From the NCBI GenBank assembly GCA_964512925.1, contig CAZEKH010000001.1, forward strand, positions 200,226-264,225: DNA of 64,000 nt, in the 5' to 3' direction. Positions 32,520 through 45,056 of the stretch are shown in pieces; position 1 is the stretch's first letter, and the number at the start of each line of letters is the position of its first letter. The notes beneath the pieces are model-generated. The model ran no database searches, was not told the DNA's origin, and worked only from the letters and a program-made list of their open reading frames with translations. The position numbers and the translations under genes were made by a program. The stretch is from an uncultured Candidatus Saccharibacteria bacterium (lineage in GTDB: Bacteria; Patescibacteriota; Doudnabacteria; UBA920).

Positions 32520-32526
32520 AAAATAT

Positions 32527-33435
32527 ATGGGAAAATTTTCATCAGCAATGGGTCATGCGGGCGAAGGCGTAAGCCGTGAAAAATATACAAGTCAAGAAAT
32601 AAGGCCAGATCAATTAGAAAAAATAAAAAATATCCCAACAGAGAAAGTTGCGATTGAAAGAGAGCCGCACGAGTCTTTTGAATTTGATTCAGATTTGATA
32701 ATTTATGATGCCCCTAACAAAAATCAGGATTTTTATGTTGAACAGCCGGAATTTGGTATGTATGGTGTTTTTGACGGACGTTTTGACGAGGGTAAAAATT
32801 ATTCAAAAAGTTTAGCTAAAATTGCTGGTAGGTTGGCAAAAAATATTAAGCCTGATATGGTTTTGGTTTTGTGGGAAAAAGCTGTAGAAAATTTTTTTAT
32901 AGAATTTGAAAAAGAAGCCAGTATAAGTGTTCCCATAAAAAAAGTAGGCATTTTCAAGAAAAAAATTCAACCGTTGGGAGATTCTACATCAACAATTCTA
33001 TTTTTTCACTCATCCGGTGAAGTGAGGGGTAAAAATCGCGGGGATTCGCCAGTTTATTTTTATGATATTAAAACTGGGTTATTAAAACAACAAACAGTTC
33101 CAACTTCTAAAATCGGAAAAGACGAAAAAGGTAGTACAATTTCTTATCCAGGGGGCTATTCCGGTGAAAATCAACAGCCATCCAATAATATCAAAACGAG
33201 GATTGGTTCCAATTCTTTAGTTTTACTTTCAACAGATGGCTGGATACAAACTAGCTATCAGAAAGGTTTGCGTCCAGAAGTTGATATACCTAAAGCTTTT
33301 AAAGCTTTAGGTGAAAATTTAACGCCAAAAAATGCCACTGAGGCGATACAAAAACTTTTAGAAAATCCAGAAGATGATGTAACTTTGTTTGCTATATTGC
33401 CCAGAAAAAAACAAAGTTCAGCCGCAGCAGGCTAG
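32527..33435 (+). CDS. PP2C/PPM-like Ser/Thr phosphatase domain protein (degenerate catalytic motifs)
   Basis: YGVFDGRFDEG (cf. FGVFDGHGG), …GDSPVYF…, LLSTDGW (cf. ASDGLWD), DDVTLFAIL; starts 7 nt after the ftsA stop. Confidence 0.45.
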   Translation: MGKFSSAMGHAGEGVSREKYTSQEIRPDQLEKIKNIPTEKVAIEREPHESFEFDSDLIIYDAPNKNQDFYVEQPEFGMYGVFDGRFDEGKNYSKSLAKIAGRLAKNIKPDMVLVLWEKAVENFFIEFEKEASISVPIKKVGIFKKKIQPLGDSTSTILFFHSSGEVRGKNRGDSPVYFYDIKTGLLKQQTVPTSKIGKDEKGSTISYPGGYSGENQQPSNNIKTRIGSNSLVLLSTDGWIQTSYQKGLRPEVDIPKAFKALGENLTPKNATEAIQKLLENPEDDVTLFAILPRKKQSSAAAG

Positions 33436-33461
33436 TATATTTATATTTAAAATCACATAAC

Positions 33462-33509
33462 AAAGACGCTTTTTGGCCTTCAAGAGGGCTTGACAAAAGC
33501 GTCTTTTTT
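33462..33509 (+). terminator. rho-independent terminator (AAAGACGCTTTTT…AAAAGCGTCTTT + T-run) overlapping a TTGACA-17-TATATT promoter (33490..33518)
   Basis: 12-bp inverted repeat plus T-run; -35/-10 hexamers embedded. Confidence 0.55.
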
Positions 33510-33650
33510 ATGTATATTATACAGTTACTTGATGGTATGATACTTGAATCAATTTCTCAGGTTTGTGTCATTCTGGAAACTCCTTAAGTTATAGGATTTA
33601 TACGGAATTTTAACTACTTGACTTGTTAATTTGAGAATTTGTAGATTATT

Positions 33651-33700
33651 TTGTCATCCCGGCCGATCCGCCAGCAGGCGGAGAGAGCCGGGATCCAGGG
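33651..33700. repeat. Family-B element TTGTCATCCCGG…CCGCCAGCAGGCGG…CCGGGATCC
   Basis: intergenic, upstream of the high-GC block. Confidence 0.6.
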
Positions 33701-33770
33701 TTCTAAAGCACCTGCAAAATTAAATCCACACAAACATTTTAGCCTGGTTTTTTCAGATATTCATCTTAGT

Positions 33771-43300: not shown

Positions 43301-44604
43301 CGGGCGGACACGGGCATGATCATACCCCGACGCCTCAAGCCCACGCGCCAGTTTCACACGAACACGAGCCAACCAAACTGGAAATTTTGTTGGGCCTTAG
43401 GAAAAAACAAGTTGCGGAAAAACTTAAACCTAAGGCTGACAGGTCAGTCTTACTCGAATTAAGCAAAATTGTTTTGGTACCGCACTTGGAATTTCAAACC
43501 GAGGAGGATGCTTTACTTGTAGCACCAAAGCTTTTAGAGACAAATGAGCTTGCCGTTGCAATAGGGCGAAAAATTCTCGATATGAATTTGGATAAAAAAT
43601 ATAAAAATATCAATATTTTAGTCAAGTTTGTTACTGCAAAATCACCTGAAGCGCCAAAGAAAACGGATGATGGTACTTTGGTCATTGAGCTGGATGCGCG
43701 CAAAAGTCCAGAGTTTTGCAAAAATGTAATAGCGGAATTTTTACGAAACACTGTTGAAAAAGACGGACCTTTAGTTTTTCAGACCGAAGCAGACAGGAAG
43801 CCTTATGAAGCGTCAAAAAAACTGGAAGCTGTCAGTAACCGTGCTGAAAATACGGATCCGCACTTTGAATTTTCTTTGAAGCCAGAGGCTTTAAAACACC
43901 GAACTCCAGAAGAGCTGGAAGAGTACGCGAATGCTATTTTTGCCGCTTTGCAGGCAAATCCGGCAACTCAGCAAGGCGCAAAACCTGGAAAAAATATTGA
44001 GATAATATTTGGCAATTATGACCCAAGAAAAGGACCGGAGGCCGCGGCTGACAAGACTTTCCAAGTTTATATAGATGTGACCAAATCTAAAAGAGAGGCA
44101 GAAGGTTTAGTTATCAGGCTTGTTAAAGACAAGCTGGAAGAAGGTGAGAAAGAAGCGGAGATTGAAAATTTGTTGAGGGAGTTTAATCAAGCCGCAGACA
44201 ATAAAGAACCCCATATAATTTTTGACATTGATAGTAAGACAAAGAAAGATGCAAATATTGCAGAAATGAGAATTTATCTCCAGTGGGCCCTCCTAGCGGT
44301 AAGAAATGAAATTACAGCAATTAAAGCAGCTAATCCGGATTATAATGACATTTTTAATATGAGGATATTTGGTTTGAACTTAAATTCAAACCGAACAAAT
44401 AACCCTCGTCTGGTTGATAACGATCCTTCCGGAGCATCTTGGATATTAAATATTCCATATGGTTTGGCTGATGAAGCTCCGTTGAGAGCATTTGTAAACC
44501 AGCAAATAACAGCACTAAAAAGACAATATGATCAAAGAATTGCAGCAGGTGCTGGTGGGCGAGGTGGTGGTGCCAGAAGAGCAGGGCGTGGTGGAAGACC
44601 ATAA
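40342..44604 (+). CDS. giant (1420-aa) ORFan protein with Gly/Ala-rich hydrophobic (glycine-zipper-like) segments, a His-rich linker and an RGG-rich C-terminus
   Basis: single uninterrupted ORF; no catalytic motif; segments GAGALAVKAGGATMLAAVSIGPGMAAALGAALGAGLYIGL and GALGAGITLAAGVLAPGAGKLL. Confidence 0.5.
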   Translation: MREVKTGMYNADSFSVRDEEAKGAARAKARQERLAKKAKMSGPDHITQESDLDTVEASDTYLVVAEISDIVDRYAMTLAKQKALEYWKSKSALNPQKWLARQTSAAFEQKLAAEIKEEILKNQNLFTQIEARLLSRSKTKNIEEKSKITYDVLDEVIDGLQDEQFKALGIESKSQKELEGKSPIEDPLVDVAASQLIYGLVVGDIVSRKEFEERAGKEILPLLSMGSKKSNEVYASSLYNIALNYKERLIDVLGVVGEKFDAKQQDLARKYIDKNLHLKIHIAKQNADIYQKESKGKIKLIESAINISQNPIFQVKPEWENNKYGKFANKVLGMTLNNPILYAALGNRAGYFAATGAGALAVKAGGATMLAAVSIGPGMAAALGAALGAGLYIGLRAAVERLRDIKRREEEAVLGQRNKEVTSLMDAREYAINFLKQLDGKQHLTDEEKKQAAYIFATLRTQDEYRKNLFSVSDVEGARTGTNFFAIQDLRKELLVFWDKNAQHFGADAESQRESLENMISAAQLEILKKLEQDDKDIAKEIKNRGLKQGALGAGITLAAGVLAPGAGKLLKMGANKTMEALGFSPQFDTSKITFTEEIGHKIAERFGKEHYDVYSGALAGIKLTGPNGDLLQLPYGSSIRRVNNYFELLLDGKPVPGVKIPVDVQGHITDPSSLEGLEKFGWKIDHQVISGSGTKNVDLFKDVKSEALNGVDFSEVKTRSFLTNGTQESDFNELRFFAEKASNGDAIISTDILDKGSFYANGKGPAMLDMLKVGKLRFFFMTKEGPLSFAMDGSQHLTIPQGSKAYELLIDSSTGKIRSDVMFGSGVAEKNAAGEWMVDWANADHGTGAALNTNVSSVSTNVWSLRQPVSHEFGGPAIFALMPRDTDSDIEIERKLNAQKDAEKKMKSLSSETRFQMAQDLYLKEFGDKKPTLAEVKFIQQKFLLDEHQAELIFIEMLKDDGMDPEEIKTATKPKTPTPAPAAPASGGHGHDHTPTPQAHAPVSHEHEPTKLEILLGLRKKQVAEKLKPKADRSVLLELSKIVLVPHLEFQTEEDALLVAPKLLETNELAVAIGRKILDMNLDKKYKNINILVKFVTAKSPEAPKKTDDGTLVIELDARKSPEFCKNVIAEFLRNTVEKDGPLVFQTEADRKPYEASKKLEAVSNRAENTDPHFEFSLKPEALKHRTPEELEEYANAIFAALQANPATQQGAKPGKNIEIIFGNYDPRKGPEAAADKTFQVYIDVTKSKREAEGLVIRLVKDKLEEGEKEAEIENLLREFNQAADNKEPHIIFDIDSKTKKDANIAEMRIYLQWALLAVRNEITAIKAANPDYNDIFNMRIFGLNLNSNRTNNPRLVDNDPSGASWILNIPYGLADEAPLRAFVNQQITALKRQYDQRIAAGAGGRGGGARRAGRGGRP

Positions 44605-44612
44605 AAATTTAC

Positions 44613-44660
44613 AAAACCCCGTTCCGATGTTTGTTGGGGCGGGGTTTTTGTGTTTTTTGG
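44613..44660 (+). terminator. rho-independent terminator (AAAACCCCG…CGGGGTTTT + T-run)
   Basis: 9-bp stem immediately after the giant ORF stop. Confidence 0.65.
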
Positions 44661-44891
44661 AAGGTATGTTATAATTGTTGTAAGAAAAAAATACCAAAAC
44701 AAACAAAAATCAAACGCATAAACACGGCCATTTAGGGCTAATAGCGGTTGATTTTATTTTTTTAAGGAATGAGTCATAGGCGCTAAAGATTTTGTCTTTA
44801 TTGCAATTCCCTATCCGAAAATGGATAGGTGAGGCAAAGATTAGATGTTTCAGTATCAAATAAATTTTTGTTTTTTTTACCATCGCTTAAA

Positions 44892-44936
44892 CCTCACCCC
44901 AGCCCTCTCCTAAATAGGAGAGGGAGTAGAATAATA
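44892..44936. repeat. Family-A element
   Basis: intergenic, upstream of ftsZ. Confidence 0.7.
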
Positions 44937-45056
44937 TTATTCAGGGATGACATAGTATTAGAATTTTTTTATAATATTGAGATGAATTTGAAAGCAAAAA
45001 TTAGAAGGACAGTTTTGTGGAATTCTTAAAAAGATATCGACTTAATAACAAATTAA

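Follow-up and report, generated by a model that had tools for sequence, protein, structure and literature searches.

In most bacteria, ftsA and ftsZ sit side by side, one of the most stable gene pairs known. What, then, lies between them when they are 12,537 bp apart on the same strand, and how did it get there? This is the situation in contig CAZEKH010000001.1, part of a metagenome-assembled genome, of which we analyzed 64 kb (positions 200,226 to 264,225; we will term this whole stretch the window). A preliminary description of the window had reported a gap of about 12.5 kb and explained it by an accessory insertion, with stepwise acquisition of foreign DNA. Both genes are genuine: FtsA (31269-32519) matches Pfam FtsA (1.5e-32) and SHS2_FTSA (2.6e-27), and FtsZ (45057-46262) matches Pfam Tubulin (3.7e-47) and FtsZ_C (5.6e-35). 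So the split is real, and its content is indeed variable, but a recent insertion of foreign DNA does not hold up, as the split extends across a clade and the base composition is native. Instead, the interval is probably the local version of a replacement-type hypervariable gene cluster that a whole clade carries between ftsA and ftsZ.

Going from ftsA to ftsZ (Table 1), the interval contains an open reading frame (ORF) of 302 amino acids (aa); a GC-rich gene of 361 aa; a gene with a PaaX_M domain, between two 42-nt palindromes; a stretch with a promoter and a GCGGAYT array; further GC-rich genes of 210, 187, and 252 aa (hGC252 is the last of these), with a minus-strand ORF within a spacer; a gene of the DUF5663 family; and a gene of 1420 aa, whose product we will term the giant.

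The split is shared by a clade of Doudnabacteria

A search with FtsZ against one genome per species yielded 80 loci and placed the window in Candidatus Doudnabacteria (Patescibacteria). (Loci are denoted by L numbers.) We mapped the proteins of the window onto these loci to score the distance from ftsA to ftsZ. In about 40 Doudnabacteria genomes, ftsA is 0.1-0.2 kb from ftsZ. Four loci span a wider gap from ftsA to ftsZ, of 5.4, 7.2, 7.6, and 8.4 kb (L014, L019, L076, and L005, respectively), and in 19 further loci, the full 10 kb upstream of ftsZ does not include ftsA. In total, the split was seen in about 30 species-level genomes. We also scanned metagenome contigs from the Joint Genome Institute (JGI) by using FtsA as the anchor, which is independent of the FtsZ-based genome set. 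All ten contigs with an FtsA that was at least 67% identical lacked ftsZ in the 1.2-8.1 kb available downstream, while the contigs with an FtsA at most 63% identical that extended past ftsA all had adjacent genes.

In a neighbor-joining tree of concatenated FtsZ and class II ribonucleotide reductase (RNR) (1232 columns, 100 bootstraps), the split genomes form one clade (bootstrap 89), which is sister to a clade with adjacent genes (86). The genes are also adjacent in all of the more distant Doudnabacteria. L006 and L007, in which the genes are adjacent, fall well within the split clade (support 81-99 and 94-100), so the junction opened once and was later closed twice. The split is thus old and arose at the base of one Doudnabacteria subclade. 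(The upstream regions of ftsZ aligned too poorly across clades to locate the insertion point.)

The closest relative, L161, is an independent Logan assembly. There, the order is a coiled-coil gene, an hGC252-like gene, DUF5663, a giant (54% identical), ftsZ, a 141-aa ORF, NrdR, and RNR. The preliminary description had stated that related genomes with the same gene order and composition would refute its interpretation and point to an old arrangement of the lineage. Relatives do share the split, the gene order, and the composition pattern.

A common plan with rapidly changing content

We compared the content of the intervals by clustering ORFs and by iterating local hidden Markov models (HMMs). 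The recurring plan is ftsA, GC-rich genes for proteins with signal peptides and transmembrane segments, a small acidic DUF5663 protein, a giant, and ftsZ. The GC-rich genes either border ftsA or are located in the distal half of the interval, and DUF5663 and the giant lie next to ftsZ. A giant of 1300-1780 aa comes immediately after DUF5663 in 15 full-length loci, and two more giants are truncated at the edges of their loci. In the variant loci L004, L005, L038, L075, and L076, a different protein of 700-1100 aa is followed by DUF5663 and then ftsZ. Eleven ftsA-ftsZ intervals include a minus-strand gene with a T4SS_pilin domain, and five variant loci include HEPN/MNT toxin-antitoxin pairs. (Pairs of this kind, a HepT-like protein plus a nucleotidyltransferase, lie immediately upstream of ftsZ at L011:9228-9972 and L028:9295-9931 and in L030 and L032.)

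This content turns over quickly. L012, L076, and L007 have FtsZ proteins that are 88-90% identical, and their intervals hold a giant cassette, an unrelated 895-aa type, and nothing, respectively. The relationships among the giant alleles conflict with the species tree, and replacement or divergence of genes is much faster within the interval than in its flanks. For example, the sisters L018 and L034 (bootstrap 96) are 93% identical in FtsZ and 16% identical in the giant, and L010 and L025 are 89% identical in FtsZ and 21% in the giant. For L018 with L012 or L010, these values are 85% and 52-54%; for L034 with L028, they are 80% and 48%; and for L019 with L025, they are 81% and 58%.

Origin of the GC mosaic

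The preliminary description correctly pointed to a mixed composition. In 1-kb bins, GC content is 55-65% at 33.9-35.1, 36.8-38.0, and 38.9-39.9 kb, the remaining bins of the window are all at or below 48%, and the genome is ~42% GC. The same description attributed this mosaic to stepwise acquisition of foreign DNA, which our data do not support. First, high-GC patches are present at the equivalent position in most split loci, and orthologs of the GC-rich families have a high GC content in all genomes (GC content at third codon positions, or GC3, of 0.54-0.75, vs. 0.43-0.69 for FtsZ and 0.31-0.45 for the giants). Second, GC content at four-fold degenerate sites is 0.57-0.64 in the GC-rich genes, vs. 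0.61 for FtsA, 0.57 for RNR, 0.55 for FtsZ, and 0.52 for HisRS. The excess of GC is in codon positions 1 and 2: these genes have high GC because their products are rich in Pro, Ala, Gly, and Arg (31-41% together). We also considered high GC3 as a sign of foreign origin and rejected it, as the four-fold sites match those of housekeeping genes. The high GC is native and results from amino acid composition, added to a synonymous codon use like that of housekeeping genes. The synonymous outliers are AT-rich, namely the 302-aa ORF (GC3 of 0.24, the minimum in the window), DUF5663 (0.27), and the giant (0.35). Third, the hGC252 family is restricted to the lineage. Among 5.8 billion proteins it has 16 homologs, and those that could be traced are on contigs with the Doudnabacteria locus; IMG/VR has none.

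One member of the split clade, L038, is ~61% GC across its whole 14.9-kb locus while its neighbors are at 40-50%, so base composition shifts widely within this clade.

The four GC-rich genes had been described as encoding secreted proteins, and judging from hydrophobicity profiles, the N-termini of all four products do resemble signal peptides, with an additional transmembrane segment in three of them. The 361-aa gene has no homolog in related loci. The 210-aa product has a match to Zn_Ribbon_1 (7e-4), and its architecture is repeated in L084, L018, L012, L086, and L082, either directly after ftsA (an hGC210-like gene is at this position in L082, L084, and L086) or upstream of an hGC252-like gene. 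(Homology within this family is by architecture, as the HMMER comparison was not significant.) The ORF after ftsA in L082 (L082:5260-6456) begins like this Pro-rich membrane family and then runs to the end of the contig as a sequence of 67% GC that, by eye, resembles a TruA-like pseudouridine synthase; either a fusion or a chimera at the contig end could account for this. The 187-aa product has phmmer matches in L084 (3.5e-17), L005 (1e-6), and L161 (1e-6), and its family is fused to the 210-aa family in L018, L012, and L086. This gene was annotated as an ORF of 218 aa, but the start of the signal peptide makes 37453 the probable start codon position.

Members of the hGC252 family are found in L005, L018, L026, L030, L034, L048, and L086, and those in L005, L018, L030, L034, L048, and L086 are syntenic. 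The beta domain of ~95 aa is conserved and contains Cys. AlphaFold models residues 40-130 as a small beta domain, with a predicted local distance difference test (pLDDT) score of 85-94, and this N-terminal domain had no significant fold match. At the position of hGC252 in L161 (L161:514-1230), the N-terminal domain differs while the poly-Pro linker and the C-terminal anchor motif (KFPIPC...) are retained, which points to domain swapping on a conserved membrane anchor.

The DUF5663-giant module

Two genes of the interval had been described as ORFans of 145 and 1420 aa, and neither is an orphan. The first, which probably starts at the ATG at 39949, encodes a DUF5663 protein (PF18908) that scores above the Pfam gathering threshold and matches our local HMM for the family at 9e-30. 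This family has 21-23 members in the split loci, with lengths of ~100-115 aa and isoelectric points of 4.1-5.2. DUF5663 has no known function, and we found no mention of it in the literature that we searched.

As for the giant, an exhaustive HMMER search of 1.84 billion cluster representatives found 81 relatives, 64 of them at 1e-10 or better, and it has syntenic homologs in 15 or more related loci. The exhaustive search was needed: word-indexed searches, with either sequence or alignment queries, returned just three proteins because low-complexity words saturate the candidate list. Full-length members of the family are 1200-2300 aa, with a conserved core at residues ~58-570. The giant is predicted to have a helical N-terminal part of ~600 aa, with a Gly/Ala-rich hydrophobic segment at ~357-400, and a beta-rich middle; its C-terminus has 2-3 repeats of ~120 aa (z = 6.6 and 3.9) and an RGG tail. 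The giant in the window has no match in Pfam, NCBIfam, PHROG, PADLOC, or PDB, and none of the 17 giants from the loci has a Pfam domain. PDB profile searches with the giant and with DUF5663 found nothing meaningful, and an AlphaFold model of the N-terminal 1100 aa of the giant, made with 3 sequences, had a mean pLDDT of 41.8, which is too low for a fold search.

The DUF5663-giant pair is an autonomous, portable module of two genes, which occupies other genomic sites in other contigs. (These contigs are probably from other Patescibacteria.) In 7 of 9 distinct loci outside of the fetched set, DUF5663 is directly beside the giant (by Pfam or by our local HMM), and in L168 and L171, there is an unannotated ORF of ~100 aa in the position of DUF5663. 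The module is away from ftsZ in 8 of these 9 loci; in L171, the giant is directly upstream of ftsZ. Two modules lie tail to tail on one contig (L169:7664-13838 and 13897-20095), so paralogous modules can coexist. The obligate pairing of DUF5663 with the giant appears to be previously undescribed.

Outside of the split loci, the neighbors of the module include ThrRS, VirD4/TrwB-like coupling ATPases, pilin genes of type IV secretion systems (T4SS), and a HopA1-domain protein. At L165:7811-10339 and L166:16462-18969, the pair is two genes from the coupling ATPase, and at L167:3553-5932, it is a few kb from five tandem T4SS_pilin genes. HopA1 is a type III effector family, and the HopA1 protein (L168:14485-15957) is encoded directly downstream of a 2153-aa member of the giant family. 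Also, four distant members of the family (P0034, P0035, P0039, and P0045) have a C-terminal PP2C domain above the Pfam cut-offs. Giants that end in PP2C lie between the genes for ribosomal protein L1 and ThrRS at L162:1007-6847 and L163:10001-16318, and in L014, the gene right after ftsA (1098 aa) carries the same type of PP2C.

Other features of the interval

The locus is flanked by housekeeping genes. Signal peptidase I, HisRS, HIT, and YqeY are on the upstream side, and two hypothetical genes, NrdR, and class II RNR are downstream. Sites that resemble promoters and terminators are consensus matches, and over the whole region they are no more frequent than expected by chance (Table 1).

Table 1. 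Features of the ftsA-ftsZ interval and its borders, in window coordinates. Signal peptides, transmembrane segments, and coiled coils are predictions.
Feature	Position	Strand	Basis or remarks
ftsA, left conserved flank	31269..32519	+	Pfam; orthologs 57-70% identical in 150+ loci
302-aa ORF, weakly PP2C-like	32527..33435	+	starts 8 nt past ftsA stop; Pfam SpoIIE E = 0.056
Terminator-like hairpin with T-run	33455..33513	+	inverted repeat, 19-nt arms, 95% complementary
Promoter-like site overlapping that hairpin	33490-33518	+	TTGACA-17-TATATT, consensus match only
361-aa GC-rich gene, 56% GC	33917..35002	+	signal peptide, coiled coil, transmembrane segment at aa 245-279
42-nt palindrome with TTGACA box, upstream of PaaX_M gene	35283..35324		inverted-repeat scan
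PaaX_M (Cas2-like) domain protein, N-terminal transmembrane segment	35366..36025	+	Pfam PaaX_M 1.8e-13
42-nt palindrome, second copy	36034..36075		inverted-repeat scan
Consensus sigma-70 promoter	36258-36286	+	TTGACA-17-TATAAT plus TG, 12/12
Promoter plus ORF-free, strongly structured stretch of ~360 nt behind it	36258..36650	+	GCGGAYT array 36376-36510, GC hairpins 36585-36640
210-aa GC-rich gene, 60% GC	36794..37426	+	signal peptide, 16% Pro, one transmembrane segment, C-terminal zinc ribbon
187-aa GC-rich gene, 58% GC	37453..38016	+	signal peptide plus coiled coil, predicted secreted
Repeat-rich spacer with REP-like hairpins	38017..39093		inverted-repeat and motif scans
78-aa coiled-coil ORF with promoter-like site 38631-38603	38337..38573	-	homolog in L048
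252-aa GC-rich gene (hGC252), 60% GC	39094..39852	+	signal peptide, ~95-aa beta domain, poly-Pro linker, transmembrane anchor
DUF5663 small acidic helical protein	39949..40311	+	PF18908 2.3e-6, 28.6 bits vs. cut-off 23.7
Giant, 1420 aa	40342..44604	+	17 local family members
Intrinsic-terminator-like hairpin after giant gene	44613..44648	+	16-bp stem then T-run
REP-like motif before ftsZ promoter-like site	44890-44910		motif scan
Promoter-like site 82 nt upstream of ftsZ	44947..44975	+	ATGACA-17-TATAAT, 11/12
ftsZ, right conserved flank	45057..46262	+	Pfam
21-nt REP-like motif, copies	12054, 13690, 33788, 38265, 38695, 38950, 44890, 60458		motif scan

The 302-aa ORF had been described as a degenerate PP2C-like gene joined to the ftsA operon. 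It starts just behind ftsA, and the PP2C assignment is weak. The Pfam SpoIIE match scores 13.8 bits against a cut-off of 25, and weak collinear matches to the PP2C profile reached E = 0.01 (HMM) and E = 6e-4 with a probability of 29% (hhalign). The ORF has no sequence match in PDB and no homolog in any of 161 loci, and BLASTP comparisons with the proteins of L014 and L076 were not significant.

The PaaX-like gene was said to be bracketed by inverted repeats. Both the domain and the palindromes are there, but the palindromes are dispersed and not specific to the island. The protein falls far below the cut-off of TIGR02277 (31.9 bits, cut-off 264.55), and its N-terminal transmembrane segment is atypical. 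The sequence thus identifies it as a relative of PaaX by domain, and not as PaaX itself; it is probably a regulator. Homologs of the gene lie directly after ftsA in L083 and L088 and at another position in L098. The 42-nt perfect-type palindrome (TTGCTGTCAA...TTGACAGCAA) has a third copy at 61972-62013, 26 kb away and between unrelated convergent genes, so we rejected the idea that the repeats around the PaaX_M gene are the ends of a mobile cassette. The palindrome could be an operator for the PaaX-like protein or a bidirectional terminator.

The iteron-like array of the preliminary description is present, with 6-8 copies of (A)CGCGGAYT, and was seen in none of the other 160 loci scanned. The stretch that contains it has an RNA folding z score of -5.0 and no Rfam match. 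One possibility is that, upstream of the 210-aa gene, it forms a structured leader or encodes a small RNA.

A 0.9-kb repeat hotspot had also been reported, and this corresponds to the spacer at 38.0-39.1 kb. The spacer is absent from L161, which has 284 nt instead. A 21-nt motif that resembles repetitive extragenic palindromes (REP), AACCTCNCCCCARCCCTCYCC, has eight copies in the window (0.02 expected), and is usually followed by a short GGGAGRG hairpin. Five of the eight copies are inside the ftsA-ftsZ interval, and none were found in 161 related loci. The motif looks like a species-specific, dispersed REP-like element. Both of these dispersed repeats (the 21-nt motif and the 42-nt palindrome) occur inside and outside of the island, and they are not terminal repeats.

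Three parts of the interval (the PP2C-like ORF, the 361-aa gene, and the 38.0-39.1 kb spacer) have no counterpart in relatives, and 32.5-36.8 kb as a whole looks specific to this genome, although the PaaX_M gene has counterparts at other positions. A modest genome-specific accretion of about 4-5 kb is plausible.

No integrase, transposase, recombinase, or phage genes were found among 144 proteins from the intervals (with Pfam) or among the genes of the window. PHROGs gave just two matches, at E of about 1e-3 and to families of unknown function, and scans with NCBIfam and PADLOC gave no informative matches. The interval has no tRNA (by tRNA scan) and no Rfam families (in gathering and E-value modes, with only spurious microRNA-like hairpin matches). 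An integrative mobile element or classical island was rejected because there is no integrase and no tRNA in the interval, the repeats are not terminal, and the synonymous composition is host-like. A prophage or a remnant of one was rejected because of the lack of phage genes and the absence of hGC252 from IMG/VR.

Interpretation and alternative explanations

Replacement flexible genomic islands are known within species and include O-antigen, glycosylation, and S-layer clusters (Lopez-Perez, Martin-Cuadrado & Rodriguez-Valera 2014, PMC4033161). As in those islands, the cluster lies at a fixed site between core genes in nearly all members, and its content is different or very divergent: we see the same conserved flanks in about 30 species and 10 contigs, and divergent content between close relatives. 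Other similarities are the lack of integrases, products that are predicted to be exposed in the envelope, and cassette types that are incongruent with the core phylogeny. Unlike those islands, the ftsA-ftsZ cluster is seen between species of a Patescibacteria clade, is inside the normally inviolate ftsA-ftsZ pair, and encodes uncharacterized protein families.

If this interpretation is correct, then the products would be located in the envelope or on the surface, where hosts or phages would select for their diversification. Cassettes might be swapped by homologous recombination, with the highly conserved ftsA and ftsZ as the arms. DUF5663 could act as a chaperone or partner of the giant. Also, ftsA and ftsZ would be transcribed separately, given the hairpin after the giant and the promoter-like site before ftsZ.

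Several points weigh against a hypervariable surface cluster. The surface exposure of the products is predicted from hydrophobicity profiles only, and the giant has no signal peptide and a hydrophobic segment that is only borderline. A division-related role is possible as well, and would be compatible with all of the genes being co-oriented with ftsA and ftsZ. The incongruence of the giants could also arise from differential loss of ancient tandem paralogs, since L023 and L169 hold two modules. Finally, the trees are neighbor-joining trees of two proteins, with some weak internal nodes (30-42), and with one genome per species, the case for exchange is made from phylogenetic incongruence; neither exchange nor breakpoints in ftsA or ftsZ were observed.

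A first alternative is that a T4SS-like host-interaction apparatus of Patescibacteria uses the DUF5663-giant pairs as chaperone-substrate (or adaptor-adhesin/effector) modules, with the variable C-termini (PP2C in some) as effector domains, and that one Doudnabacteria clade keeps a hypervariable cassette of these and other surface proteins between ftsA and ftsZ. The analogy would be to VirE1/VirE2 of the Agrobacterium T4SS, which are a secretion chaperone and its substrate encoded by a gene pair. In both cases, the gene for a small acidic helical protein is immediately beside the gene for a very large protein, and in some of our loci, genes for a VirD4/TrwB-like coupling protein or for T4SS pilins are in the vicinity. 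However, there is no sequence relationship to VirE1/VirE2, and the 64-kb window has no secretion apparatus genes. We consider this explanation unlikely. If it were true, the ultra-conserved flanks would serve as recombination arms and would possibly couple expression to division.

A second alternative, which seems quite unlikely, is that the interval is a lineage-specific module for division or envelope signaling. The giant, with PP2C-type phosphatase domains in cis or encoded close by, would act at the Z-ring like SpoIIE of Bacillus (a membrane PP2C known to bind FtsZ) or PstP of Mycobacterium. The membrane proteins would be clade-specific parts of the divisome, and a location between ftsA and ftsZ would then make sense. 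Like SpoIIE and PstP, the giant family includes large membrane-associated PP2C proteins, and the PP2C protein of L014 is encoded beside ftsA; the co-orientation of all of the genes and the weakly PP2C-like ORF that follows ftsA in the window would also fit. On the other hand, the giant in the window has no PP2C domain, similarity to SpoIIE is limited to the PP2C fold, and we saw no genes for a partner kinase or for STAS proteins. Also, ftsA and ftsZ are adjacent in L006 and L007, which do without the interval, and the sister clades never had it. In the other contigs that we examined, the DUF5663-giant pair is away from ftsZ except in L171. For a core part of the division and cell wall (dcw) cluster or of the divisome, we would look for conserved co-occurrence with ftsZ or ftsA across lineages, and instead we found neighbors such as ThrRS and T4SS genes. 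Giants that are 16-58% identical among species with FtsZ 80-93% identical would be atypical for core divisome parts, and the giants from these loci have no Pfam domains.

Third, the interval could be a genome-specific accessory island that formed by stepwise uptake of foreign DNA of differing GC content, as first proposed. The PP2C-like ORF, the 361-aa gene, the PaaX_M cassette, and the 1.1-kb spacer lack counterparts in relatives at those positions, and given that an hGC210-like gene directly follows ftsA in L082, L084, and L086, roughly 4.3 kb may have been added here. In other genomes, toxin-antitoxin pairs and genes with T4SS-pilin domains accumulate in the same interval. However, about 30 species have this split, with the same gene order and GC mosaic; at synonymous sites, the GC-rich genes and housekeeping genes have equal GC content; hGC252 is lineage-restricted and there are no mobility genes; and the genome's own dispersed repeats populate the interval. 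This makes a foreign island very unlikely.

Last, although the source of the window is a metagenome-assembled genome and GC content varies strongly along it, a chimera that joined unrelated DNA between ftsA and ftsZ is barely credible: the junction from ftsA into GC-rich genes recurs independently (L082, L084, and L086), as does the junction from the DUF5663-giant pair into ftsZ (L161 and 15 loci), four contigs span the whole interval, and dispersed repeats tie the island to the rest of the contig. With the same junctions spanned by independent contigs, misassembly is in practice excluded.

Implications

In the split clade, about 30 species tolerate a stretch of fast-evolving genes within ftsA-ftsZ that ranges from 5 kb to over 12 kb. 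As this split is long-lived, tight linkage of ftsA to ftsZ is dispensable in these ultra-small bacteria. The locus also illustrates that mosaic GC content, in a genome of low GC, is not necessarily a sign of horizontal transfer. Finally, it points to candidate genes for the cell surface and for interaction with hosts in a lineage that is uncultured and barely known, and the pairing of DUF5663 with this rare family of giants, in some cases with PP2C domains or T4SS neighbors, offers a testable handle on both families.

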